From NCBI GenBank assembly GCA_028683025.1, contig JAJRAB010000074.1, forward strand, positions 1 through 28,690: a stretch of 28,690 nt of DNA. The letters run 5' to 3'. The notes under the pieces are model-generated. The model worked only from the letters and a program-made list of their open reading frames with translations. It did no database searches and had not been told where the DNA came from. Each line of letters opens with the position of its first letter. Position 1 is the stretch's first letter. A program made the position numbers and the translations under genes. Of the stretch, positions 834 to 25,214 are shown piece by piece. The DNA is from Candidatus Methanomethylicus sp. (GTDB lineage Archaea > Thermoproteota > Methanomethylicia > Methanomethylicales > Methanomethylicaceae).

Positions 834-871
834 CATATCTAGCATTGTTTATGATCAGGGGTAAAGTAGCT

Positions 872-1513
872 ATGAAAGAAGAAATTTTAAAGGGATTAGC
901 CCAAGCAGTTATTGATGGAGATCTGGACAAGGCACAGCATTTTTCCAAGGAAGCCATTGCCAATAAAATTGATGCCTATGAGGCAATTATGGAAGGTTGT
1001 GCCAAGGGGATGAACATTGTAAGCCAGAAGTATGAGACAGGTGAATGTTTTGTCCCGGAGGTTCTGTGCTCTGCTGAAGCCATGACAACAGCCATGGATA
1101 TGCTGAAGCCCTACCTGAAGGCAGATACCACAAATGTGCCGAAGAAGGTAGTCATTGGCACAACCCAAGGCGATGTCCATGAGATCGGAAAGAACTTGGT
1201 GACGCTCATGCTCGAGGCAGGCGGATTCAAGGTCATAGATCTTGGTCCAGATGTCTCTGTTGAAAAATTTGTCGAGACGGTGAAGAAAGAGAATGCGGAC
1301 ATCTGCGCCATGTCCTCGCTGATGACTACTTCCATGATCTTCATGCCGGATATAATCAAGGCCGTTAAGGCGGCCAAACCAGACACAGTAACCATGGTTG
1401 GAGGCGGCCCCTTGAGCCCTTCAACTGCGGAAACCTATGGCGCAGACGGCTATGCCAAGGATGCCTCTGTTGCAGTTAAAGTAGCTAAAGAATTGACTTC
1501 AAAGAGGGATTAA
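872..1513 (+). CDS. Methyltransferase corrinoid protein (MtaC/MtbC/MttC-like)
   Basis: N-terminal B12-binding_2 cap (EAIMEGCAKGMNIVSQKYETGECFVPEV), His-on motif GDVHEIGKNLV, SSLMTTSM, MVGGGP and YGADGYAKDA. ATG at 872 preferred over TTG at 845. Confidence 0.93.
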   Translation: MKEEILKGLAQAVIDGDLDKAQHFSKEAIANKIDAYEAIMEGCAKGMNIVSQKYETGECFVPEVLCSAEAMTTAMDMLKPYLKADTTNVPKKVVIGTTQGDVHEIGKNLVTLMLEAGGFKVIDLGPDVSVEKFVETVKKENADICAMSSLMTTSMIFMPDIIKAVKAAKPDTVTMVGGGPLSPSTAETYGADGYAKDASVAVKVAKELTSKRD

Positions 1514-1517
1514 AAAA

Positions 1518-2588
1518 ATGAAAGACAGACTATCAGGCGGAGAGAGGATGTTTGGCCTCCTGACAGGCCAAAAGATTGATCGAATACCCGTAAGTCCCTT
1601 TGCCGAGGGCTATGCTGCCAAGGTGTGCGGCGCATCGATAGGGGACTTTTACTCAAACGCCAAAACCAATTTCTGGTGCCAGCTGATGGCTGCAGACATG
1701 CATGGCTATGATTCATCACCGTTCTACGGCTATGCCAGCGTAGGTGCCTGGGAGTTCGGCGGCAAGATCGAGTTCCCCTACGGTGTGGGCCACGGCGCAC
1801 CTTATGTGACAAAGCATCCCATCGAGACTCCCGAGGATGTGGATAGGATGGAGATACCAAATCCCAAGACTGCTGGGGCTGTGCCTCTTACCATGGATGT
1901 CGCAAAGATGTGCAACTCATTGGGCATGCCAGCAGTATTCCAAATTGGCGGTTTCATAACCTACTGCGGCAATGCCATGGGTCCTGCAAAGATGCTGCTG
2001 TGGATGATCCGCAAGCCGGACGTCGTCCACAAGATGATTGCCAAGATAGAGGAGTTCCAAAAAGGAGTTGTTGACTACTTCGTTAACACCTTCGGAGCTG
2101 ATAAGTGCATGGCATTCAGCGGCGGCGCTACTGAGTCCAATAAGCTCATCAGTCCGAAGCAGTTTGAAGCCTTTTCCCTGCCCCACGAAATAAGCATGAG
2201 CAGATACATCCTTGACAAAGGTGTGCATATAGTGCTGGCGCATCCGTGCGCTGACCAGAACGGCAACCTGCCTTTCTACAAGAAGATGAGGGAATCATGT
2301 GGTTGGAAAGGGAAATATGTATGGAACTTCGGTCCCGAAACACCTCTGGAAAAGCAGATCGAAACCTTTGGAGCCCACGATGTAATTGGAGGCAATGTGG
2401 ATCCACCGTCGTTCCAGGTAAAGACCTTTGACGAGGTAGTAGCCCTTTGCAAGGACAATATCGAAAGGGGGATGAAGAACCCATCTGGCTATGTGCTGAT
2501 GCCAGGCTGCGAGATGCCACCCCTCACGCCGCCGATAAACGTCCACGCCATGATGGTTGCAGCAAGGAAATTCGGCGCCTACGAGTGA
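1518..2588 (+). CDS. MtaA/CmuA-family methylcobamide methyltransferase (uroporphyrinogen decarboxylase fold)
   Basis: Zn-ligand pattern H-x-C (AHPCAD) plus C-terminal GYVLMPGCEMPPLTP, LISPKQFEAF and GGNVDP. Starts 4 nt after the corrinoid gene. Confidence 0.88.
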   Translation: MKDRLSGGERMFGLLTGQKIDRIPVSPFAEGYAAKVCGASIGDFYSNAKTNFWCQLMAADMHGYDSSPFYGYASVGAWEFGGKIEFPYGVGHGAPYVTKHPIETPEDVDRMEIPNPKTAGAVPLTMDVAKMCNSLGMPAVFQIGGFITYCGNAMGPAKMLLWMIRKPDVVHKMIAKIEEFQKGVVDYFVNTFGADKCMAFSGGATESNKLISPKQFEAFSLPHEISMSRYILDKGVHIVLAHPCADQNGNLPFYKKMRESCGWKGKYVWNFGPETPLEKQIETFGAHDVIGGNVDPPSFQVKTFDEVVALCKDNIERGMKNPSGYVLMPGCEMPPLTPPINVHAMMVAARKFGAYE

Positions 2589-7226: not shown

Positions 7227-7340
7227 GTGAAACAGCCTCCCTTGATCTTTGCAATGCGGTTTTTAATAACGCATCGGTCTTCAGGAGTTGGCATATCATT
7301 ATATTCTCTTAACAAGGATGGTAAAAACGGTGTGCAACCG

Positions 7341-8627
7341 ATGATGCTTTGGGACCCTGTACGGAGAAAAAAATACAACCAGTATACGTTGATCTTATTC
7401 CTGGTCGTGTTTCTTCTAATAATATTGCAGATAGCATCGCCCGGGCAGCCATTCTATTTCTTTGCGGTCTTCGGGATCATCATCCTGTTTGTGGCGGCAA
7501 GGTGGATCCTAAGCATAAGGGACATCACCAAGGGGGCATCCAAGCCTGGCAGCGGAGGCATCCTTGGCTCCATAGTGTCAAACGTGACCGGTGCAGGGGC
7601 TGCCGAGGAGGTTGCCCAGAGCCTGAGGCAGTTTGGAGTTAACGCAGATGTGATCAAGCTAGATTCGCCTAACATCTATGGGGGGAGCGCCAATACCGGC
7701 AGGATCGGCAACCTCTCATTGGTGGCTGTTAAGGTCGAAGGCAGGAACATTGACAGGATTGAGCCCAATTGGACCCGAAGCGGGAAGCACAGCTACATAA
7801 CCTTCAGTTACCAGGTCAAGGCGGATCCCAAGGATCTCCAACAAGATCTCACATCGGTCCTCATGCCCAAAAGGGACAGGTCTGTACTGGGGAGCATAGT
7901 GGATTACAAATGGGTGGACACAGTTCCAGGTTTCCCCGGGGGGTGGGGCATCAACCTCGGCCTCTTCCTATTCGGGTTGGTCTTCATGGGCTTTGGCCTC
8001 TTTGAGATCATTCTTATGCTCAACACAATAGCTGAATTTGAGATTGCAATGGTGCCATTGGCTTTGGTGCCAACATTATTTGCAGCTATTGGATTCTTAC
8101 TGAGCTTTGGGCAGATCTTCTTCCTAAAGCGCCGCAGATACGAGGGGAACAACCTGCTTAGCAGGGCGCTCAATGCGGATTTCAGTTTGAAACAGATGCT
8201 TCTGAATGCGCACCATACGGATTGGACCACGGTTGCTCCAAGCTTGGATGGCAGCTCTGTTTCCATAGGCGGGAGCTTCCCAACCAGGGAAAAGTTTGAG
8301 ATATACGATGCCATAGCATCCCATGTCCTAAGCCTTGTGCCTGATTCTTCGTCCTTCGGAGAATATCTACCCCACCAGAGCGTTGAAGGTTCGGAAATCA
8401 GGCAAAAGGTGCCCTACCGAACGGTTAGCACAAGGCAGGTGATCATAGGTCCTGTATTCATAATTGCCTTTGCCCTTTGCTGGTTCGGCGCAGCCTTTTT
8501 CATCACCGGGGGGAATATGGAGGAGCTACTCATCCCGCTGCTCATGGCTGGTTTGTTCATAGCAATAGGCGTTGTGGCCTTAATAACCCAGATAAGGAAT
8601 CTTGCGAACCAAAACAAGAGCCACTAA
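7341..8627 (+). CDS. Hypothetical membrane protein (three TM hairpins separated by soluble segments)
   Basis: Long ORF with about 6 hydrophobic helices. ATG at 7341 with GGTG upstream is preferred, because 7227-7340 looks like a divergent promoter region. Confidence 0.7.
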   Translation: MMLWDPVRRKKYNQYTLILFLVVFLLIILQIASPGQPFYFFAVFGIIILFVAARWILSIRDITKGASKPGSGGILGSIVSNVTGAGAAEEVAQSLRQFGVNADVIKLDSPNIYGGSANTGRIGNLSLVAVKVEGRNIDRIEPNWTRSGKHSYITFSYQVKADPKDLQQDLTSVLMPKRDRSVLGSIVDYKWVDTVPGFPGGWGINLGLFLFGLVFMGFGLFEIILMLNTIAEFEIAMVPLALVPTLFAAIGFLLSFGQIFFLKRRRYEGNNLLSRALNADFSLKQMLLNAHHTDWTTVAPSLDGSSVSIGGSFPTREKFEIYDAIASHVLSLVPDSSSFGEYLPHQSVEGSEIRQKVPYRTVSTRQVIIGPVFIIAFALCWFGAAFFITGGNMEELLIPLLMAGLFIAIGVVALITQIRNLANQNKSH

Positions 8628-8688: not shown

Positions 8689-9291
8689 TCAGAGCCGATT
8701 GGCCCTGACCATATTGGCCAGCAGGCGGATGAGCCTTGCAACGACCGGCGTGGCTAAAAATAGGGATATAAGGGATGTTGTTGCAAATGGCAGCAAATTG
8801 TAGAGCAGGGTCGGGAGTTGGTTCTGGCCTGCTATGTAGACCAGCCCTGTGTAATAGGCGATGACCAGAAGTGCAAAGCCTATCATCGTGAAGGCCAATA
8901 GTTTTCCGAGGGTTCTGCCAGAGGCAAGGTCTTTGTAGCGCGGGAGTCCAGCAAGAAAACCAAGCAACCCATAGCCTAGATTGATGATCCCGAGCGCAAT
9001 GATCTGGTGACCAAACAACATATCTGCACCTGCGCTGCCCAGAAATCCTCCCAGGAATCCAGCCGTAGGTCCAAAAAAGGCGCTTATGAGGGGGATTACT
9101 AGGATAGCGGGCACGAACTGGACAGTGATCATACCCATAAGCTTGTAACCCGGCAGGTTGATGGGTGATAGGGCTATGTAGAGGGCTACTCCCATCAGGG
9201 CGCCCAGCAGGCTCCAGAGCGCATCTCGCCTGGTTTGGAGTCTGAGTCGGCTGAGGATTTTCCCTTTCAAACCTTTTAAGGCAACGGCCAT
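8689..9291 (-). CDS. ECF transporter S-component
   Basis: About 6 TM helices, about 200 aa, motif ISAFFGPTAGFLGGFLGSAGADML. GGAGAGGAG RBS precedes ATG 9291 (alternative start 9306). Confidence 0.75.
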   Translation of the reverse strand: MAVALKGLKGKILSRLRLQTRRDALWSLLGALMGVALYIALSPINLPGYKLMGMITVQFVPAILVIPLISAFFGPTAGFLGGFLGSAGADMLFGHQIIALGIINLGYGLLGFLAGLPRYKDLASGRTLGKLLAFTMIGFALLVIAYYTGLVYIAGQNQLPTLLYNLLPFATTSLISLFLATPVVARLIRLLANMVRANRL

Positions 9292-9319
9292 AGTTCTCCT
9301 CTCCATTTTTTTAATTCAT

Positions 9320-10990
9320 TCAAATAATAACGAAGGAATAGGTACCCGGTTCCAGGTTGAGCAACAGCTGGTTGCTGTCAAGTGTCCAGTCGATGTAGGT
9401 ACCCTTGGACGTGTAAACTCCTTGGATGCCCGCTGCGTTGTCAATGGTCAGAACCTGCGAGTGCTCGGTCTCTACGGTCAGGATGAAGGCTTCCCGATCC
9501 TCATCATAGCAGGCTTGGTAGACGTAGAGACCGTCCATCCTGGACTGGTTCGAGATGTAGGGCTTCGCGAAGAAAGCATCCCCTCTGGGGGTCATAAGGT
9601 CCGAGAGGGTAGAGTTGGCATGGCCCCATGCCCAAGCGAAGTTGATCACGGGATAGGTGAATGCGCTGAGGCTGCCGAGGGCGCTCGTATCAAATTCGTA
9701 CCTGTCGCCAATCCACTTCCCTTCGAAGGGCTTGTAGAACCAGTTCTCCAGCTTTGCGTTCAGCTCCGAGTCGCCCATCTCCCGGGAGCAGAAATAGGCA
9801 AAGAGGTTGGCCACGTACTCTGAGGCCCCAAAGTCATGGGGGAAGTAATAGGATTCGACCACGTAGGCCGTATTGTCGGCACTGTAATGGACGAACGCTG
9901 ACTTCCAATTCCCATAAAGGCTATCGGCCAGCGGCTCCATCCCCATGGCATTGTAGAACATGGTGATCCAGGCTGAACCGTAGGCAGAGACCTTCGGGGC
10001 GTCAAGCCCCTTCGTCATGGCCGGTCCCGGGTAGATCTGGAAGCCACCCCCCTGGGTTCTGTGCCTCTCCAGGGGCTGCATCACATAGTAGCCGTCTATC
10101 GGAATCCCGCGGGGATCCATCATGTGCTCCTGCCACCAGGCTATGCCGGGCAGGCTTGCCTCCTGGTAGGAGGTCCCGTGGAGGTTGTCATAGAGGCGCA
10201 TCGTATAGAATGGGATGGCGTTACACTGGACAAATACAATATAGGGCTCGCAGGGGATCAGACCAGTTCCCCATCGCCCCAAGTCTCCCGAGGGGTTACC
10301 GTCCCAGGCAGTGCTGGAGGTCAGGGACGAGTTCCACTGGTCCAGGTAACCTGTAATCTCACTGCTGTAGGTATTATCCCGGTAGATGCTCTCGTAGAAT
10401 AGTTCCATGAGCGTAAAGTGGCCTGTCCACATAATGTTGGTTGGTCCCCGGAAATCGTTGCCAGTGCCGGCATAGCTGGAGTTGGTGAAGCCGGGCTTGA
10501 CCCACTCGAGCTGCTCCATGGCTGAACTGTTCATCATGGCAATCAGCTTGTGGAAAATGTCCTTGTAGTAGTCCGTCCTGAAGCTGGGGGTGGAGTCAGC
10601 TATCATGGCTATGCCGTAGGTTGTGAATGGGAGGAAATAGTGGGTGTAGATGGGCGGCAGCACGCTCAGGTCGTTGACGCTCGCATAGGAGAGGTTGGTC
10701 ACATCATAATAGTCCCTGAAGAGGTTCACCAGCCCTATAACTCGGCGGTCAAGCGAAGGGTAGTCGTTGAGGTCGAAGCTACCCTTGCCTGCAACAGTAA
10801 TGGTGGGGAGCTCAAGGCTGGGATGCTGGGACGGCGTAAGTATGAAGGTTGAGTTGGCAACCAATATGGTCATAATCAGGAAGCATGAAAACAGCTTGTT
10901 CCTAGAGATCCAGCCTGAAAAACGATTTGCCACCTTCCCCCCTCCCATCGCTGGATCATTCTCGCACTCTTGGTCCTTATTAGGGTGCAC
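9320..10990 (-). CDS. Linalool dehydratase/isomerase (Ldi/LinD) family protein, secreted or membrane-anchored
   Basis: Collinear motifs recalled from LinD: YFLPFTTYGIA, NIMWTGH, GLIPCEPYIVFVQCNA, YDNLHGTSY, VSAYGSAW, REMGDSEL. N-terminal basic-hydrophobic anchor and 7 N-glycosylation sequons. Confidence 0.85.
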   Translation of the reverse strand: MHPNKDQECENDPAMGGGKVANRFSGWISRNKLFSCFLIMTILVANSTFILTPSQHPSLELPTITVAGKGSFDLNDYPSLDRRVIGLVNLFRDYYDVTNLSYASVNDLSVLPPIYTHYFLPFTTYGIAMIADSTPSFRTDYYKDIFHKLIAMMNSSAMEQLEWVKPGFTNSSYAGTGNDFRGPTNIMWTGHFTLMELFYESIYRDNTYSSEITGYLDQWNSSLTSSTAWDGNPSGDLGRWGTGLIPCEPYIVFVQCNAIPFYTMRLYDNLHGTSYQEASLPGIAWWQEHMMDPRGIPIDGYYVMQPLERHRTQGGGFQIYPGPAMTKGLDAPKVSAYGSAWITMFYNAMGMEPLADSLYGNWKSAFVHYSADNTAYVVESYYFPHDFGASEYVANLFAYFCSREMGDSELNAKLENWFYKPFEGKWIGDRYEFDTSALGSLSAFTYPVINFAWAWGHANSTLSDLMTPRGDAFFAKPYISNQSRMDGLYVYQACYDEDREAFILTVETEHSQVLTIDNAAGIQGVYTSKGTYIDWTLDSNQLLLNLEPGTYSFVII

Positions 10991-17084: not shown

Positions 17085-18404
17085 TCAGTTACCTGATTTG
17101 TGCGAGTCTTGTTTTGCCTTCATTTTCTTCAATGTGCTGTTGAGTGCCTGAACTGAGTCCCTCAGGTCTGAGATCTGCTGGTTGAAGTCGTCCTCATTCC
17201 TGGCGGGTTTTGCCACTGCTGGCTTTACTGCCGGTAGCACTTCTGGAGCCGGAGTAGTAGCTTGCGTTTCTTGAGCAGATACGGCTTTGGCTGGCTCTGG
17301 TTGGTCAAGTTCCTTTATCGCCTCCTCTAACGGGGTGGCTTTTGGCTGTGGCTTGGCTTTTATCTCAAGATTGGTGATCTCGGCATCAGCGGTAACAGTC
17401 GCATCAGCTGATTTCGGTGAGGGTATAGGCTCTGCTTTTTTGGGTTCAGCCGTTTTGGGCACTGCCTTGGGCGGCTTCTGGAGCTCTTTCACCACCTCCT
17501 CCAGCTTCACAAGAGACACCTGAATATCCTCACCCGACTCCTGGGTTTTGGCTTCTGCCTCCTTCTCCATCTGAGCCTTCTTGGCGATGATCTTTTTAGC
17601 TTCCTCAAGACTGCAGAGCGGCTTTACCTTAATTTTGGGTTCGCCGGGTTCGGCATCCTCATCTCCCGCTTTCTTTGAAGGCTGATCCAGTTCTTCCGGG
17701 GCAATGCTCTCGGGCTCGGTTCTTTTTTCCAGTATGGATTCAGAGATTACATCTCCCCTAAGCGGCATGGGTACCCTAGTCTTTGATTCAGATGATGCTT
17801 CGGACAGGGTGCCATTTTGGCTCAATGTGCTGGAGCCCATCCCGCCGGCATTTGGAGCGTCAAGGATTGTAACCTTCGGTTTTGCGTTTTGGACAGTCCA
17901 CTGGAACATGGTTTCCATTAACTTGTCGTCGTTAATCACCATCTCCTGCTTTCCGTCAGCCTTTGGAGATGACCTTGCAACCAGTGGCGGTTCACCGGCA
18001 GAAAGGCGCAGTGTCTCCGGCTCCTTCTTGGCAGTGGGTGCAGGTGCGCCCTTCTGGGGGCTCTTTACCTGGATACCCAGACTCGGTAACCGCCGTTTTT
18101 TACCCCGGGTCCATCGAAAGAGGAGATCTGCCAGCGTCTTCCGATCGCTGAGCTTCATCCCGCTGCCGCTGACAGTGGGTATCCCCTGGACATCTTCGGG
18201 TTCGAGGCCCCATGCCCTAAGTTCTTCCACGTCCGTGAGGGGGGAGGCGGGGGTGCCGTTCTTTTGCCTAGCTTTTTTAGCCCTTGTCTCCTTCTGGAAC
18301 CTCAGGTAATCCATGAAAAGTATGGCCAGCACGCCCGAAGCAATGGCCAAGCTGAATGCCACTATGAGCGGCATCATGTAAGGCATCAGTGACTCAATAT
18401 CCAC
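17085..18404 (-). CDS. Membrane-anchored, largely disordered protein with C-terminal coiled coil; probable archaellum accessory
   Basis: One N-terminal TM helix, P/E/K/A-rich low-complexity body, C-terminal heptads (FNQQISDLRDSVQALNSTLKKMK). GAGGAGG RBS before GTG; 66 nt downstream of arlJ on the same strand. Confidence 0.75.
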   Translation of the reverse strand: MDIESLMPYMMPLIVAFSLAIASGVLAILFMDYLRFQKETRAKKARQKNGTPASPLTDVEELRAWGLEPEDVQGIPTVSGSGMKLSDRKTLADLLFRWTRGKKRRLPSLGIQVKSPQKGAPAPTAKKEPETLRLSAGEPPLVARSSPKADGKQEMVINDDKLMETMFQWTVQNAKPKVTILDAPNAGGMGSSTLSQNGTLSEASSESKTRVPMPLRGDVISESILEKRTEPESIAPEELDQPSKKAGDEDAEPGEPKIKVKPLCSLEEAKKIIAKKAQMEKEAEAKTQESGEDIQVSLVKLEEVVKELQKPPKAVPKTAEPKKAEPIPSPKSADATVTADAEITNLEIKAKPQPKATPLEEAIKELDQPEPAKAVSAQETQATTPAPEVLPAVKPAVAKPARNEDDFNQQISDLRDSVQALNSTLKKMKAKQDSHKSGN

Positions 18405-18470
18405 TACCCACTTCCTCCTCTCTTTCTGTCTTTGGCCTTTCCCGCAGCTTGTCTATGTCGATCATGAGTA

Positions 18471-20075
18471 TCACACAGTCGGGGTTGTAAGGTTCCCTAA
18501 CCCGATCCCCTGGAGGTATCCTATCACCGATGTGAGGCATACCAGGTAGGTCAGCCATCCTGATACCACGAACAGACCCAGGTAGAAGGACAAGTTGAAT
18601 TCCTGCTCTCCACTGATCTCGTATATCAGGAGGGCATTAATGAAAGTGAGGGCTGTCACGATAAGGTAGATGTAGACGTCGATCAGGTTCAGGTCCGGCA
18701 CCATAAAGATGACAGGCATGCCCGAGCCTTGGAACGTCTTGAAAATCTCTACGAACTGGGTTATGATCGCCATAATAAGCCCCATTATTGCGCAGAGGAT
18801 AGGGTGCATGGGTATGATTATCCCCTTCATTAGGGCTGAGACCTCGCTGAGCCTCCTCCGAAGGGTAAGCATGAACAGAGAAGAGTTGGCTACCAGCGGA
18901 CCAAACTCCTTGGCTGGCGCTCCGTAGGCATTGGCCTTTGAGAATGCCTCGGAATGGATCCGCATCATGTCGCTCGAGGTCTCGGTCTCGAAAGACTCCC
19001 AGCTTACGTTCTTGTCTATTCCAAGCTCCAGCTTTGCACTCATGCCTCGGACATAGGGGGAGAGCTTGCCGAAGTCCAGGCGGGAAACATCCCGGAAAGC
19101 ATAGATTATGGAGGTCCCCATGGTGGATAGGGAGGTGGAAAGCATGGTGGCGAACTCTGGGAACCTCTCGTCAATGGTCTCCACCCTGTTGGAGGCGTTT
19201 ATGCCCATGAAGCCGATTATGAGGCTCGGGAATCCAGAAAGACCGGCTGCCAGGAGACCCAGATCCCTCGGAACTATGTGGAGTGTTATTAAAAAGACAA
19301 AGACCAGGTTCACAAGGAACGTAAACCAGACCACATAACGGTTGATCTTTGTAAGCCTCAACAGCTGCCGCCTCTTCTTGGTCAGGGATATGACCCTGAT
19401 GACTGGTGACGAGATGTAGAAGATTAGAGCAAACATGCCGTACATTACCACGATTCCAGGCACGATGACGCCCACCATACTCATGCCAGAGCCCCAGAGG
19501 AGACCTGTGAAAGTGAGGATCATGACAATAAGCACAGAGGAGGATAGGACAGCGCTGTAGGCCTCGGTGAACCTCTTGAAGCGGATGAAGGCGCGCTCCA
19601 TGTCGCTGGAGTACATGGTCATGAAGGTATTGTACTCCTTACCAAGGAAGACAATCATGTCCTCGCCCAATTTAGCTATCTGGGCAAAGCGCTGCAGGAA
19701 ATCCTGGAGGTAAAGGAGCTTCGCATCCTTCCTCGTGATCTCGCAGGCACGGCTCAGGTCGATACCCAGATTCAACATTGCTGTAATCTTGCGCATAAGC
19801 TTCGTGATCTCGCCGAACTCGGTCCTGCTGCTGGCCCTAACAAGCTCTATGGAAGAGATGTCGGCGTAGGAGCAGGCGAGCATGTGCATTAGAAAGAAGG
19901 GCATCGCATGCCACATTCTCTTGTTGCTGCGGATGTACTTAAGGGAAACCAGCTGCTCCTTCAGGGAGTGCCGGAACTTCTCGTGGGCCCTCTTCGCCTC
20001 CAGGTTCTTGATCTCCTCCTGGGTCTTGGAAGGCATCCAGCGGGGCATTTCCTGGGCAGCCTGGCTCTGGCTCAT
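18471..20075 (-). CDS. arlJ: Archaellum motor membrane platform protein ArlJ (FlaJ)
   Basis: Two cytoplasmic T2SSF-like domains (LQDFLQRFAQ...GED; DERFPEF) with TM blocks; directly follows arlI. Confidence 0.88.
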   Translation of the reverse strand: MSQSQAAQEMPRWMPSKTQEEIKNLEAKRAHEKFRHSLKEQLVSLKYIRSNKRMWHAMPFFLMHMLACSYADISSIELVRASSRTEFGEITKLMRKITAMLNLGIDLSRACEITRKDAKLLYLQDFLQRFAQIAKLGEDMIVFLGKEYNTFMTMYSSDMERAFIRFKRFTEAYSAVLSSSVLIVMILTFTGLLWGSGMSMVGVIVPGIVVMYGMFALIFYISSPVIRVISLTKKRRQLLRLTKINRYVVWFTFLVNLVFVFLITLHIVPRDLGLLAAGLSGFPSLIIGFMGINASNRVETIDERFPEFATMLSTSLSTMGTSIIYAFRDVSRLDFGKLSPYVRGMSAKLELGIDKNVSWESFETETSSDMMRIHSEAFSKANAYGAPAKEFGPLVANSSLFMLTLRRRLSEVSALMKGIIIPMHPILCAIMGLIMAIITQFVEIFKTFQGSGMPVIFMVPDLNLIDVYIYLIVTALTFINALLIYEISGEQEFNLSFYLGLFVVSGWLTYLVCLTSVIGYLQGIGLGNLTTPTV

Positions 20076-20124
20076 GGATCATCCCTCCTGAAGCAATTTA
20101 CCAAGGACGACGAAATATTGAGCA

Positions 20125-22065
20125 TCATTTGCCCTCCAGTATCTTGTCGATGGCGCGCATTGTCACGTTGTCAAAGTTCATTGAGGCAACGTAGGGGTTC
20201 TCGTAGACTTTTGACAGGGCATTGTATACCTCGTAATAGTCCATGATGTTGAGCTCAATCATCTTCTTGATGATGTAGGTCCTGATGTCAAGCTCACTGT
20301 AAATTTTCCGTGAATCAGAAAGTGCCAGACCTTTACTGGGAGCCACCTTATATTCCAGGAGGTAGCTGTTGCCCACTCCCCTGAAGGTGTGCTTGTCAGT
20401 GACCGGATCCCAGGAGAAGATCTCAATATAGTTGTAAGACTTCTCCACCGGGTCTACACCGATCATCTCGCATATACCCGTAACCCGCCTCTCAAAGCGG
20501 TTTGTGACAGAGGACTTTACGCTGCTCTGGAAGAGGACCACATTGAGGTTGTCAACATAGGCCGAGGGAATATTGATGGGATCGCCGGTGATCCTCTGGA
20601 TGAGCTTGACCATGGATGCGGCGTGGAATGTGGAGATAACCGGGTGACCGGTCTGGATAGCCTGGAACGCTACCGCCCCCTCCTTCCCCCTGATCTCGCC
20701 CACTATGATGTAGTTGGGCCTCTGCCTCAGGGCAGACTTCAGCAGGTCGAAGAGCTCGATGGACGATTGCTCAGTCTCGCCCTTCCTGGTGCATTCGCTG
20801 ATCCAGTTGGGGTGGGGGATGTAAACCTCAGGAGTGTCCTCTATTGTGATTATCTTGGCGTTGGGGCGGATGAAGACGGTCGAGGCGTTGAGGGTTGTGG
20901 TCTTCCCCGAGGCGGTCTCTCCGCAGATGAACATGGACATGCCGTGTTCGAGCATCATCCATAGGTAGGCCGCCATCTGGGGGCTGAGCGTGCCGAACTT
21001 TACCAGCTGGGTTATGCTCATGGGTATCTTGGAGAACTTACGGATGGTGAAGTTGGAACCACGCCTGCTCACATCGGTCCCAAAGACAACGTTGAGCCTC
21101 GAGCCATCCTGGAGAGTGGCGTCGATTATGGGCCGGCGCGGGCTGCAGGGTCTCCCTATCTTCTCGCACACCCTGATTACGAAGCCGTCCAGGTCCTGGG
21201 GAGTTGGGAACGCAATGGCAGCCCGCATCGAGCTGAAGACCTTATGCTCCACGAAGATTGGACCTACTCCATCACAAGAAATATCCTCAATGTTCGTGTC
21301 CCGAATTAGGGGCTCTATTATGCCGAAACCTATCTTCTCGGTCATTATCTCGTAGCGAAGGCGGTTGTACTCATCCTCGTTTACCCTGATGATCTCCTTA
21401 ACGCCCTTGGGAGGCGAGGCAGCCGATCCTCCGACCTTGACTAAGCTGTCGAACATCTCTTTGAGCATTTCTTCCTTGTTCTCAGCGATCTTAGTCGCCA
21501 TCTGGTCAGTTATCATCGAGGCGAAGAGCTCCTCGACCTTCTTTATCAGGTCACTCTTCTCTGGGGGAAGGCGGGGCTCTATGGGAGCGTAGACCCCGGC
21601 AGGCTCCCTTACGTTCTTGTACAGGTGGACGAAGATGCCCTCGTTGACGGGATAGATAAAGTTGAACTTCTTAAGGGACCGCATGTCCCTCGTCAGAGCT
21701 GTCTTGAACTGGAGCGGTTCGCCGATTGGGTCAGCCACCTTGGCCTTCTGTTGGACATACTCTACAAGGTGGGGATTCTTCTTGGCGTACTCCTCGTAGG
21801 TGGGCCCCATGGATGCTGGCGCTACTTCGCAAGCGCTTTTTGCCCTCGCGTCGGCAGGCTGGGGAGCTGCAGGAGGGGGAGGGGAAACGGCCGTCTGTAG
21901 TGGGGCAGGAATGGTCGTAGATGGGGATTTTGGGGACTGGGTAGCAGGCGCGGGGGATGCTGTTGCCTGTGGCACGGAGCTGGCAACCAGTTTGGCTTCG
22001 GGTGTAACCACGACCGTCTTGTCATCGGGTTTATCTTTCTTGGTTACCACCTGCGCCTGTGACAT
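20125..22065 (-). CDS. arlI: Archaellum assembly/rotation ATPase ArlI (FlaI)
   Basis: DISCDG, Walker A GETASGKTT, IEDTPE, ALRQRPNYIIVGEIRG, TGHPVISTFHA. Confidence 0.95.
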   Translation of the reverse strand: MSQAQVVTKKDKPDDKTVVVTPEAKLVASSVPQATASPAPATQSPKSPSTTIPAPLQTAVSPPPPAAPQPADARAKSACEVAPASMGPTYEEYAKKNPHLVEYVQQKAKVADPIGEPLQFKTALTRDMRSLKKFNFIYPVNEGIFVHLYKNVREPAGVYAPIEPRLPPEKSDLIKKVEELFASMITDQMATKIAENKEEMLKEMFDSLVKVGGSAASPPKGVKEIIRVNEDEYNRLRYEIMTEKIGFGIIEPLIRDTNIEDISCDGVGPIFVEHKVFSSMRAAIAFPTPQDLDGFVIRVCEKIGRPCSPRRPIIDATLQDGSRLNVVFGTDVSRRGSNFTIRKFSKIPMSITQLVKFGTLSPQMAAYLWMMLEHGMSMFICGETASGKTTTLNASTVFIRPNAKIITIEDTPEVYIPHPNWISECTRKGETEQSSIELFDLLKSALRQRPNYIIVGEIRGKEGAVAFQAIQTGHPVISTFHAASMVKLIQRITGDPINIPSAYVDNLNVVLFQSSVKSSVTNRFERRVTGICEMIGVDPVEKSYNYIEIFSWDPVTDKHTFRGVGNSYLLEYKVAPSKGLALSDSRKIYSELDIRTYIIKKMIELNIMDYYEVYNALSKVYENPYVASMNFDNVTMRAIDKILEGK

Positions 22066-22093
22066 TTTGCAAACTCCTAAAGTTATCCAGTAA

Positions 22094-22819
22094 TCATGCC
22101 TTTACAGCTGTGAAGGGGAGTATCCTTATCCCCATGTTCGGTTCCACCTTGAAGGTAGCCATGTTGTTGGTTGCCTTCATGGCGCCCCTCAGCTTCAGTA
22201 TCTCAACGCTCCTGGCCGTCTCGTTGCTGGGAAGCGTCTTAACCTTGAACACGAAGTGGCCGTCGCACATCGAGCGGATCCTGATGAGGAGGTTTGTGTC
22301 GAAGGCAAAAGGGTGGAGGGTCACCAGGATCACCCTTCTCCTCTGGTCCACAAAATTGCGGAGCTCTGAGAGGAAGTTTAGTAGGTCGTTCTGTGAAGAG
22401 TGGGTTGCGATGTAGGTTACCGAGTCGAAGATTATTACATCCGCGTCACCCTTCTTCTTTATGTAGTTGCTCATGACGGCGAGGTAGTTGGAGGTTATGT
22501 TCTCGTCCCAGTCTATACCCTTGGAGTGGAATGCGGTTATCTTGAATTTGCCCTTGATGAAGTAGGGCAGGGCGTCAAAACCAAAACTCTCGAGCTGACT
22601 CAGGGTAGAGGTGGTCGTCATTTCAGTCGTGACGTAGCGGACCGACAGGTCAGATTTCAGGGCGCCAATTATGACATCCTGGCAGAATACGCTCTTGCCA
22701 GTATCGTTCTCCCCTTCGATGAGGTTCATGGAGGGTATGGGAAGGCCACCCATCATCCTGTCCAGCTCTCCATTGCCCATCTTTACTGATTCAGCCCTTT
22801 TTACATCGACAACTGCCAT
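22094..22819 (-). CDS. arlH: Archaellum accessory RecA/KaiC-like ATP-binding protein ArlH (FlaH)
   Basis: ELDRMMGGLP, GENDTGKS, IIFDS, TLHP, RIRSMCDGH, KLRGA, FKVEPNMGIRI. ATG at 22819 lies 2 nt after the arlF stop; the ORF-track extension is a shadow of arlF. Confidence 0.93.
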   Translation of the reverse strand: MAVVDVKRAESVKMGNGELDRMMGGLPIPSMNLIEGENDTGKSVFCQDVIIGALKSDLSVRYVTTEMTTTSTLSQLESFGFDALPYFIKGKFKITAFHSKGIDWDENITSNYLAVMSNYIKKKGDADVIIFDSVTYIATHSSQNDLLNFLSELRNFVDQRRRVILVTLHPFAFDTNLLIRIRSMCDGHFVFKVKTLPSNETARSVEILKLRGAMKATNNMATFKVEPNMGIRILPFTAVKA

Positions 22820-22821
22820 TC

Positions 22822-23358
22822 TCAGGAACCTCCTGGGCCGAATGCCCTGCTGCTGGTCCCACCGTCTATAGTTATCATAGTGATGTACCAGCCTCGGTTG
22901 GAGTCGATCGAGTCCGAGACTGCCAGTGAAAGCTCCAGCGTTTCGCCAGGGTCCCACATCCCTGTCCCTAGGGCAAGGCTGACGGGATTCACAAGGTCCC
23001 CCACCAGATTGCCAACGAGAATGCGATTGATAGACCAACCGTCAGAAGCTGCCAGGTAGTCAAGGCGCTTCGCTACCCTAGTTCCGTTATCGCTCACAAA
23101 GACAACAAACACATCGCTGTTCTTCAGTTCGGCTACGCGCAGATTTTTGGTGCCCTCCAGTGTAACATTGACACTGAAAGTTGAGGGCAAAGAGATGCTT
23201 CCCCCAGAGTCCATGTGAGGCGATGAGATGGATTTCTCACTTTGAACTGTGGAGAGCAGCAGGAGCGAGTTGGTGGAGGAGTTTATTATTGAGGTCATGG
23301 CGACTGTGAAAACGATCCCGATTGTTATCGCCCCAATCACCCCAGCAAAGCCGCTAAT
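22822..23358 (-). CDS. arlF: Archaellum stator protein ArlF (FlaF)
   Basis: N-terminal hydrophobic helix (SGFAGVIGAITIGIVF), VNVTLEG, WDPGETLEL, ITIDGG; lies between arlG and arlH. Start inferred at ATT 23358; the ORF track uses GTG 23340. Confidence 0.78.
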   Translation of the reverse strand: MSGFAGVIGAITIGIVFTVAMTSIINSSTNSLLLLSTVQSEKSISSPHMDSGGSISLPSTFSVNVTLEGTKNLRVAELKNSDVFVVFVSDNGTRVAKRLDYLAASDGWSINRILVGNLVGDLVNPVSLALGTGMWDPGETLELSLAVSDSIDSNRGWYITMITIDGGTSSRAFGPGGS

Positions 23359-23371
23359 CTAATCCATCCTC

Positions 23372-23857
23372 CTAGACTGCAAAGTAGAACTCGGCGTTCA
23401 CCCCGTTGCTGGTGATGATCTTGAGGTAGTAGTCCCCTGGCGAGATGCTATAGGGGAGGAGGAGGGTAATTTCTATAGTCTCGCCAGGGTCGAACCTCAG
23501 ATCCGAATCGCCATTATTCACTAAACTGTAATTCCAGGTGGGGGAAAGGGTCTGATTGAATATCATCAATGAGAAGTTTCCTCGGGGACCAAAGAAAACA
23601 TTGAAATCGGATAATGCATTTGGAGAAATTTGACTCTGTCCAGTATTCTTTACCCAAGCTTTCATTATGTTTTGGGACGAGTTTGTGGCAAAAATTACTT
23701 TGATTGAAGTTGAGACAGTTTCAGTTGCATCGTTAATGGCTGAGAGTTGGGCACCATTCAACCTCAAAGATCCCTGCATGAATATGAAGGCTGCAGTGGA
23801 TGCTACAACAACAACTGCGATTGTGATGATTGCTTCAGTTATTACGTTTGTTGCCAT
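23372..23857 (-). CDS. arlG: Archaellum stator protein ArlG (FlaG)
   Basis: MATNVITEAIITIAVV, AWVKNTG, DPGETIEI, GDYYLKIITSNGV. Confidence 0.85.
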   Translation of the reverse strand: MATNVITEAIITIAVVVVASTAAFIFMQGSLRLNGAQLSAINDATETVSTSIKVIFATNSSQNIMKAWVKNTGQSQISPNALSDFNVFFGPRGNFSLMIFNQTLSPTWNYSLVNNGDSDLRFDPGETIEITLLLPYSISPGDYYLKIITSNGVNAEFYFAV

Positions 23858-25040
23858 TAATCTTCACCATTTTTGAGCCATTCCCATTTCCATTGCAGTC
23901 GCCATTGCCGTTTCCATTTTCTGTATAGTTGCTATTTTTCAGCATGAGAGAAGAGGATGTCTTCAGGAGGTTCAGGACAACCAAGAAGTCCAGATCAGAG
24001 CTTCCCTTTTTCAGCTTGTCAAACAGGTAAGCTATTGTGATGTGATCACTAATTGCGACCTCTTGCTCTTCGGGGATGTCCTTTGAATTCACTACAGATA
24101 CCACGTTTAACAGGGCAGATTTGACTTCCTCAGAGAACCAACCTTTGCGGTAATAATCTTCAATTACATTTTGGGCACCTTTCCTGCCAAAGATCTTCAT
24201 TAGAGCAGCAGCACAGGCAGTCAATCCAACTATACTTACGCCTACGACAGGCGTGGGTTCATTGGTTGAAAGCAGTGCATTATCTTTTATTGTTGCTTCA
24301 GGAGTTGTGCCCCCTCTGTTTTTTGGTTGTTGGAAAGCGAAACTGGATTGATTTAATAATGGTGCTGTGCCGCCTTCAGGCAGTGGAGGTGAGCCTCTGA
24401 ATAGTTTCATTGATTCTTGCAGGACTCCGCCTTCCTTGAGTATTTCCTCAAGCTCTTCCTTTACTGAGTCCTTAAACTGCTTCTCCAGCTTTTCCTTGAT
24501 TTCTTTCTCCAACCGTTCCTCCAGTTCAATCTTGAAATATTCTTTCATCCGGCTTTGCATATCATCTTGCATTTCAGGGCTGTTTAGAGCTTCGCCTAGC
24601 TTCTCCCCCAAAGCTGCTTTGAGGGCGTTCATGTCAATCGGGACGTTCAGCATCCCTTTATCCTTGAGCTCACTCACTTTCAACTCGATAATTGATCCAA
24701 GTTGCTCATCGATGAATTTAGCCATTATCTCATTGACTGCCTGCTTCATTTTTCCATCCACAATAGTCTTGACAAGCGAGTCGACCCGTTTTTCCATGAA
24801 TTCTTTGAGCTTATTTTCTACGATGTTATCGGCCATTGTTAGAATTACTTCATCAATCCCCAGGCCTTTAAGGTAGTTTAGGGGGTTATCAAGGTCAGTT
24901 AGAATGTTCCTGACATCGCTCAAAACAGCACGAGTCTCATGGGACATCTCGGATACGGTATTCTCTAGCTTTGAAGTCTTCTCTTCTAGCCTGAGAACTT
25001 TCATCCCAACGTCTTCTGATTCCTGCTGCTGTGATGTCAT
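23835..25040 (-). CDS. ArlC/D/E-like fusion protein with central helical-repeat region
   Basis: N-terminal ArlC-like coil (LEEKTSKLENTVSEM...LDNPL) and a C-terminal ArlD/E-like signature (IFGRKGAQNVIEDYYRKGWFSEEVKSALL). GAGGT RBS before ATG 25040. Confidence 0.65.
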   Translation of the reverse strand: MTSQQQESEDVGMKVLRLEEKTSKLENTVSEMSHETRAVLSDVRNILTDLDNPLNYLKGLGIDEVILTMADNIVENKLKEFMEKRVDSLVKTIVDGKMKQAVNEIMAKFIDEQLGSIIELKVSELKDKGMLNVPIDMNALKAALGEKLGEALNSPEMQDDMQSRMKEYFKIELEERLEKEIKEKLEKQFKDSVKEELEEILKEGGVLQESMKLFRGSPPLPEGGTAPLLNQSSFAFQQPKNRGGTTPEATIKDNALLSTNEPTPVVGVSIVGLTACAAALMKIFGRKGAQNVIEDYYRKGWFSEEVKSALLNVVSVVNSKDIPEEQEVAISDHITIAYLFDKLKKGSSDLDFLVVLNLLKTSSSLMLKNSNYTENGNGNGDCNGNGNGSKMVKINGNKRNN

Positions 25041-25214
25041 TTTTGTTTTACCTCGTTTTATCACTCAGCGAAAATAGGGAATGTCCTACTGTCCACTAGT
25101 GCTAATTATGAATTGTTTTCAGATACTCTTTAAAGAGGATTATCAAAGGCGACTGCAAATCACTAAAAGAAAGGATAAAGGCAAAAAAATTAAAGTTTTT
25201 CTAACGAGAGAATG

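Follow-up and report, generated by a model that had tools for sequence, protein, structure and literature searches.

A long-form linalool dehydratase/isomerase-family protein with a predicted membrane anchor and an S-component-like partner in a Methanomethylicaceae archaeon

The window analysed here, a 28,690-nucleotide stretch of a Candidatus Methanomethylicus contig (JAJRAB010000074.1), contains a reading frame that had been predicted to encode a surface-exposed archaeal homologue of linalool dehydratase/isomerase (LinD). This raises the questions of what such a protein is, what it may do at an archaeal surface and how it came to be in this lineage. LinD is valued as a cofactor-free catalyst that turns alcohols into alkenes, and it is, to our knowledge, the only member of the Ldi family with a measured activity. 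It has been called almost alone in sequence space (PMC6600392). Our literature search linked neither linalool dehydratase nor its Pfam family (PF18566) to archaea or Asgard archaea. NCBIfam holds no model for an Ldi-like enzyme, and the NCBI pipeline labels some homologues as linalool dehydratase/isomerase domain-containing protein.

The reading frame runs uninterrupted on the minus strand from a GTG at 10990 to the stop at 9320 (556 aa) and is the longest in its frame. These are also the limits given in the original prediction; the open frame was confirmed, but the gene probably starts further in. GTG 10933, giving 9320-10933 (minus strand, 537 aa), is likely the true start, since it follows a GGAGG-like run, agrees with the database gene call on the contig (P0002, 537 aa) and coincides with the N-termini of 31 of 31 aligned homologues. 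The GC content is even across the gene region. Residues are numbered from the 537-aa protein; adding 19 gives the 556-aa frame.

9320-10933, minus strand: gene of the Ldi family, read from GTG 10933 (537 aa) to the stop codon at 9320-9322.
10934-10946, minus strand: purine-rich run resembling GGAGG, 7 nt ahead of GTG 10933, seen in the sequence itself.

The protein belongs to the Ldi family. An HMM search matched it to Pfam Ldi (PF18566) with 77.4 bits, where 26.1 is the cut-off, and to no other Pfam family at E values up to 1. Solved LinD chains, about 20-22% identical to it, were matched at an E value of 2e-15 in a single-sequence search and at 2.4e-26 with a profile of 32 relatives. The AlphaFold2 model made from the relatives' alignment (mean pLDDT 88, pTM 0.87) consists of a membrane helix, a short hairpin, the twelve helices of an (alpha/alpha)6 barrel and eight beta strands. 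In a Foldseek search against the PDB the first 27 matches were all LinD chains (E about 1e-14; TM by target 0.78-0.82; rmsd 3.3-5.5, and 3.3-3.9 for most chains). Chains of complement C5 (thioester-domain barrel) and of GH105, GH88 and GH127 followed with E values above 7e-5 and much lower TM. Thus LinD of Castellaniella defragrans (PDB 5G1U, 5HLR, 5I3T) shares family and fold (TM 0.80) with an archaeal protein, as had been predicted, and the Pfam search and structure prediction proposed as checks gave the same answer. A generic glycosidase reading was rejected because the GH-type fold scores fell far below those of LinD and no glycosidase Pfam family was matched.

9563-10765, minus strand: twelve-helix (alpha/alpha)6 barrel spanning residues about 57-457, its long loops all on one face, from the model and Foldseek.
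10418-10438, minus strand: NIMWTGH motif, residues 166-172 (185-191 in the 556-aa frame), aligned to LinD NIMYKGH.
10220-10252, minus strand: CEP-x5-QCN, residues 228-238 (CEP 247-249 and QCN 255-257 in the 556-aa frame).

LinD residues are given in 5g1u numbering unless said otherwise; C171 and C180 are C170 and C179 in 5hlr numbering. The HMMER alignment ran residue for residue through the CEP...QCN segment of LinD and placed the NIMxxGH histidine in register, which bears out the spacing and collinearity noticed originally. It paired Y99 with Y66, M168 with M125, H172 with H129, C228 with C171, E229 with E172 and C237 with C180, so that all six LinD residues are retained. Y99, M168, H172, C228 and C237 are invariant in the 32 relatives and E229 is nearly so; in some relatives the two catalytic cysteines are the only ones in the ectodomain. 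The key residues of LinD are H128, Y44, D38, C179 and C170 (5hlr numbering), and D38' and Y44', contributed by the adjacent subunit, are required in its active site (PMC12455561). LinD is a periplasmic pentamer that depends on a C48-C101 disulfide and has a dimer as its smallest active unit (PMC6600392). The profile alignment pairs D38 with R73 (next to D74) and Y44 with N80, in columns that vary within the family and across the superfamily, and C48 with A84, the C48-C101 cap disulfide being absent from the window protein. Judged from these alignments, the pocket core is kept, the cap is missing and the second-subunit residues have no clear counterpart in position.

Only 200 clusters among 1.84 billion representatives were matched at E values up to 0.001 in an exhaustive profile search. 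The residues Y, N-I-M-[YW]-x-x-H, C-E-P, C-N and then D and T are present in almost every full-length member. Because these residues are conserved superfamily-wide, an intact catalytic cysteine pair is a family signature; the pair predicted originally is there, but it is no pointer to the substrate of LinD. Most members are 500-600 aa long and proteins of LinD length (about 390-400 aa) are a minority, so by this sequence comparison LinD is an unusual short form. The distant long-form proteins share with the window protein a YP-LD...IGL-N N-terminal block and the full catalytic signature, but match at only about 100-140 bits. One of their clusters bears bacterial names (Pseudomonadota, MYXO-CTERM).

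10838-10894, minus strand: single N-terminal membrane helix, residues about 14-32 (33-51 in the 556-aa frame), from hydropathy and the model.
9323-9562, minus strand: C-terminal all-beta domain, residues 458-537, eight strands in the AlphaFold2 model, absent from LinD.

Outside the barrel the two proteins differ. The single hydrophobic stretch, helical in the model, follows R4, R11 and K13, in line with the N-terminal anchor predicted earlier; LinD has a cleaved signal peptide instead. The charges ahead of the helix imply a topology with the N-terminus inside and the bulk of the protein outside. An outside location had been counted as a departure from LinD, but LinD is itself periplasmic (PMC6600392), so that the window protein, by prediction, shares its extracytoplasmic setting, and reduced thiols are expected for both. 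Seven NxS/T sequons were present as described (positions 46, 99, 154, 170, 220, 459 and 481 of the 556-aa frame), one of them in the membrane helix. They are not enriched: the six in the body compare with 3.7 +/- 1.7 on shuffling (p 0.14), and conservation is limited to N154 (32/32 relatives) and N220 (26/32). The additional beta domain of about 80 residues is borne out by the model and missing from LinD, but not special to this copy, as the profile match extends into it (to position about 531) in many distant relatives of 520-600 aa.

Directly behind the Ldi gene lies a second gene on the same strand, its start 13 nt past the Ldi stop.

8689-9306, minus strand: partner gene, 205 aa, encoding a membrane protein that resembles ECF S components, with six helices plus one more at the N-terminus.

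The partner matches PF07155 at 33.7 bits (cut-off 26.7), as do 32 of 37 orthologues. Its model reached a pLDDT of 93, and the first 27 PDB matches were all ECF S components. With these (RibU, ThiT, FolT, BioY, and the UPF0397 proteins, which match at TM 0.68-0.76) it has in common the PF07155 match and the six-helix fold (TM 0.5-0.76 overall); it differs in its extra N-terminal helix, in having no adjacent EcfT/EcfA and in being predicted to bind an enzyme. Orthology to RibU, the riboflavin S component, was rejected, as the partner scored 30.6 bits on the equivalog model NF010182, for which the cut-off is 99. Translation of the partner may instead begin at the sixth codon, ATG 9291 (9285-9306, minus strand), which is preceded by a GGAGAGGAG run; the first ATG has no such run.

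Among 53 related loci from named genomes, 50 had downstream DNA, and in all 50 the partner lay directly downstream of the Ldi gene on the same strand. The deep-branching Helarchaeota variant also has a partner next to its Ldi gene; there it is longer (L070 5631-6494, 287 aa) and matches PF07155 strongly, and two Zn-alcohol-dehydrogenase genes lie 2-4 kb upstream. At two other distant long-form loci, one from the bacterially named cluster, no S-like partner adjoins the Ldi gene. The pair is doubled in tandem at two loci, both in Thorarchaeota/Promethearchaeota genomes (L022 3498-8277, L028 2055-8021), and four other MAGs carry two separate loci each. As the copies fall into different Thor sub-clades, they suggest old duplications. 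No third gene is conserved across lineages around the pair, and no ECF module (EcfT/EcfA) was next to it in any locus examined. An EcfT/CbiQ gene was not found in the window's genome (59.6% complete), whereas all five carrier genomes tested have CbiQ/EcfT away from the pair: G024 (a second genome of the host's family), two Atabeyarchaeia and two Heimdall genomes.

Joint folding of enzyme and partner gave a score of 0.75, which is the model's own confidence, against 0.01 for the best of three controls. For comparison, scores this high were obtained for 58 of 80 solved complexes and for 2 of 110 mismatched pairs, counts that are approximate because custom alignments were used. The runs share at least 88% of contacts, with a partner pLDDT of at least 86. 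In the predicted complex, the membrane helix of the enzyme (residues 12-34) lies against partner residues 51-64 and 180-191, and enzyme loops 349-357, 365-372, 398-404 and 415-419 contact the outer loops of the partner. This interface leaves out the catalytic residues; the contacts appear to lie mostly on the long-loop, active-site face, in another sector than the catalytic residues. The model supports binding, and enzyme and partner are probably bound to each other. We know of no solved complex of this kind, nor of any described S component that binds an enzyme's membrane helix and ectodomain.

The archaeal distribution survey proposed earlier found Ldi in 53 of 400 Asgard genomes as opposed to 2 of 401 from the window's phylum, and in none of five same-genus genomes (0/5). 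Among 21 relatives, the partner occurs only in the two genomes that also hold Ldi. The named relatives comprise Thor-, Heimdall-, Hod-, Loki-, Njord-, Hel- and Atabeyarchaeia. The second carrier in the host's family, G024, is 98% complete and has the pair on a 61-kb contig. It is taken to be the SPRUCE peat MAG, whose contig is labelled Methanomethyliaceae (L003), as the position of its Ldi gene on contig 14 is within the range of the MAG contig. In a maximum-likelihood tree the window protein, the SPRUCE MAG protein and three metagenome sequences formed a 5-row clade (support 99), nested in a 9-row Atabeyarchaeia/Njordarchaeota clade (98), in turn nested in a 15-row clade containing Heimdall and Hod sequences (100).

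This nesting within Asgard sequences, together with the rarity of the family in the host phylum, is best read as horizontal transfer of the cassette from an Asgard donor to the window's lineage. If the contig were misbinned Asgard DNA, there would have been no transfer; the bin is indeed fragmented (110 contigs, 59.6% complete) and the nearest named relatives beyond the host family are Asgard. However, the archaellum ATPase ArlI on the same contig is 71-72% identical to ArlI of three same-family genomes, an identity from which the contig is judged native to the host lineage. Since, in addition, the GC content is even across the region and the second same-family carrier holds the pair, we regard misbinning as very improbable. 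A DNA search with the 11.8 kb around the gene gave no conserved flanks in five same-family genomes and showed no empty insertion site.

The neighbourhood of the pair was inspected in the window and at related loci. In the window, the neighbours include an acyltransferase, an aldo-keto reductase with an Fe-S domain, a DUF998 protein and a VWA protein, among others. The gene for a multi-pass membrane protein of 466 aa that matches nothing in Pfam (7227-8627, plus strand) converges on the partner gene. At 845-2588 (plus strand), a corrinoid-binding protein with B12-binding domains is followed by a UroD/MtaA-type methyltransferase, which would fit a methylotrophic, methanogen-related host. An archaellum cluster (17085-25064, minus strand) comprises ArlH (KaiC-like), ArlI, ArlJ and an ArlD/E-like gene; five same-genus genomes have only distant ArlI paralogues and three same-family genomes have orthologues, so the archaellum is patchy too. 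At the Loki/Thor loci L060 and L061, the pair adjoins a conserved block made up of STT3 oligosaccharyltransferase, Nop10, eIF2-alpha, S27e, L44e, Sec61-beta, MazG and SHMT. A 1-Cys peroxiredoxin follows the pair at these two loci, and a peroxiredoxin is also near the pair in the SPRUCE MAG. Geraniol/geranial dehydrogenase-type genes were not consistently near the pair. Compared with LinD, the window protein thus has a constant S-component-like partner and an archaeal host, and no monoterpene pathway around it.

What might the two proteins do together? Our preferred explanation, to which as a whole we give a probability of about 0.6, is a tethered long-form Ldi enzyme with LinD-like chemistry, an S-component-like protein as its dock and route, and an Asgard origin for the cassette. 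The single N-terminal helix would tether the enzyme to the outer face of the cytoplasmic membrane. Its gene would be co-transcribed with that of the partner, and the enzyme would dock on the partner's helices and outer loops through its membrane helix and through loops of barrel helices 9-12. As the pocket core is kept, we infer LinD-type, cofactor-free chemistry, that is, acid-base catalysis assisted by thiol and histidine, in which water is added or removed or an allylic hydroxyl is shifted. The substrate would be a hydrophobic alkenol or alkene, and anoxic conditions would keep the two cysteines reduced; the isoprenoid or lipid substrate of the original prediction is pure conjecture. The partner may serve as membrane dock and as route for lipophilic substrate or product between the enzyme and the membrane or cell, the direction of flow being likewise conjectural. 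The two-gene unit would be an invention of Asgard archaea that a genome of the Methanomethylicaceae family gained by horizontal transfer. Several observations sit uneasily with this explanation: the D38'/Y44' columns hold R73/N80 and the C48-C101 cap is missing; the catalytic residues lie outside the predicted interface, which leaves channelling a proposal; and no EcfT/CbiQ was found in the host genome, 59.6% complete, nor an ECF module beside the pair at any locus examined.

Other roles for the pair were weighed against the same evidence. The enzyme could convert an external terpenoid or other lipophilic alkenol, the product being imported by the partner with energy from a shared EcfT/EcfAA' module encoded elsewhere. 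The PF07155 match and S-component fold speak for such scavenging, as do the CbiQ/EcfT genes elsewhere in the five carrier genomes tested, and LinD itself feeds a catabolic pathway (PMC4097962). An ECF module is, however, never adjacent and was not found in the incomplete host genome, geraniol/geranial dehydrogenase-type genes are not consistently nearby, and a partner held fast by the enzyme's membrane helix and its ectodomain of 500 residues might not be free to topple, a movement on which ECF transport depends; we hold this reading possible but doubtful. Somewhat less likely still, the enzyme may maintain the envelope by hydrating or dehydrating the cell's own isoprenoids at allylic or tertiary positions (polyprenyl or dolichyl carriers, unsaturated archaeol chains and quinone tails are candidates), with the partner as lipid access port and anchor. 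The predicted position at the membrane surface, docked on a membrane protein, the housekeeping neighbourhood of the Thor/Loki pair (STT3, Sec61-beta, ribosomal proteins) and the very strong conservation of the motifs over deep Asgard lineages would suit this, and the substrates of LinD include tertiary allylic alcohols as large as about C13 (PMC12455561). A core lipid function would not be expected to be so patchy (53/400 Asgard genomes, 2/401 in the window's phylum), and ready horizontal transfer better suits an accessory trait.

The barrel might also be a non-catalytic binding protein that captures a ligand and passes it to the S-like partner in the manner of a substrate-binding protein, an idea that draws on the tight pairing with a transporter-like protein and on the missing disulfide cap and the apparently missing second-subunit residues of LinD. 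We consider it improbable, as the whole superfamily, LinD included, retains the Cys pair, His, Tyr, Met and Glu with little or no variation, the pattern of a kept catalytic site. Least probable of all is a glycan-active (alpha/alpha)6 enzyme, for example an unsaturated-uronate hydrolase of the GH88/GH105 type with surface or external polysaccharide as its substrate. A barrel followed by a beta domain is a common layout among glycosidases, and weak fold matches to GH105, GH88, GH127 and GH76 were obtained, but with E values above 2e-4 and TM of 0.3-0.58 against 1e-14 and 0.80 for LinD, and no glycosidase family appeared in Pfam at E values up to 1.

The tethered, docked enzyme that we prefer allows a bolder version, which we put forward only tentatively and think rather unlikely: enzyme and partner may form a self-sufficient, transferable, ATP-free surface machine that moves isoprenoids out of or into the membrane with allylic hydration or dehydration. 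If true, the S-component fold would be newly used as the lipid port of an enzyme, and Asgard archaea and their neighbours would have a new way to edit or harvest isoprenoid lipids. For the family, the analysis surrounds LinD with a genuine, if small, superfamily of about 200 clusters, from which biocatalysis can draw new enzymes for testing and which includes one sharply conserved archaeal branch of different architecture and with a fixed membrane partner. Asgard biology gains a conserved predicted surface complex, present in about one in eight of the sampled Asgard genomes, and its spread, on the best reading, provides a clear case of a two-gene cassette passing from Asgard archaea to a methanogen-related lineage. 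Serving as the dock of an enzyme would, if true, be a new role for the S-component fold.
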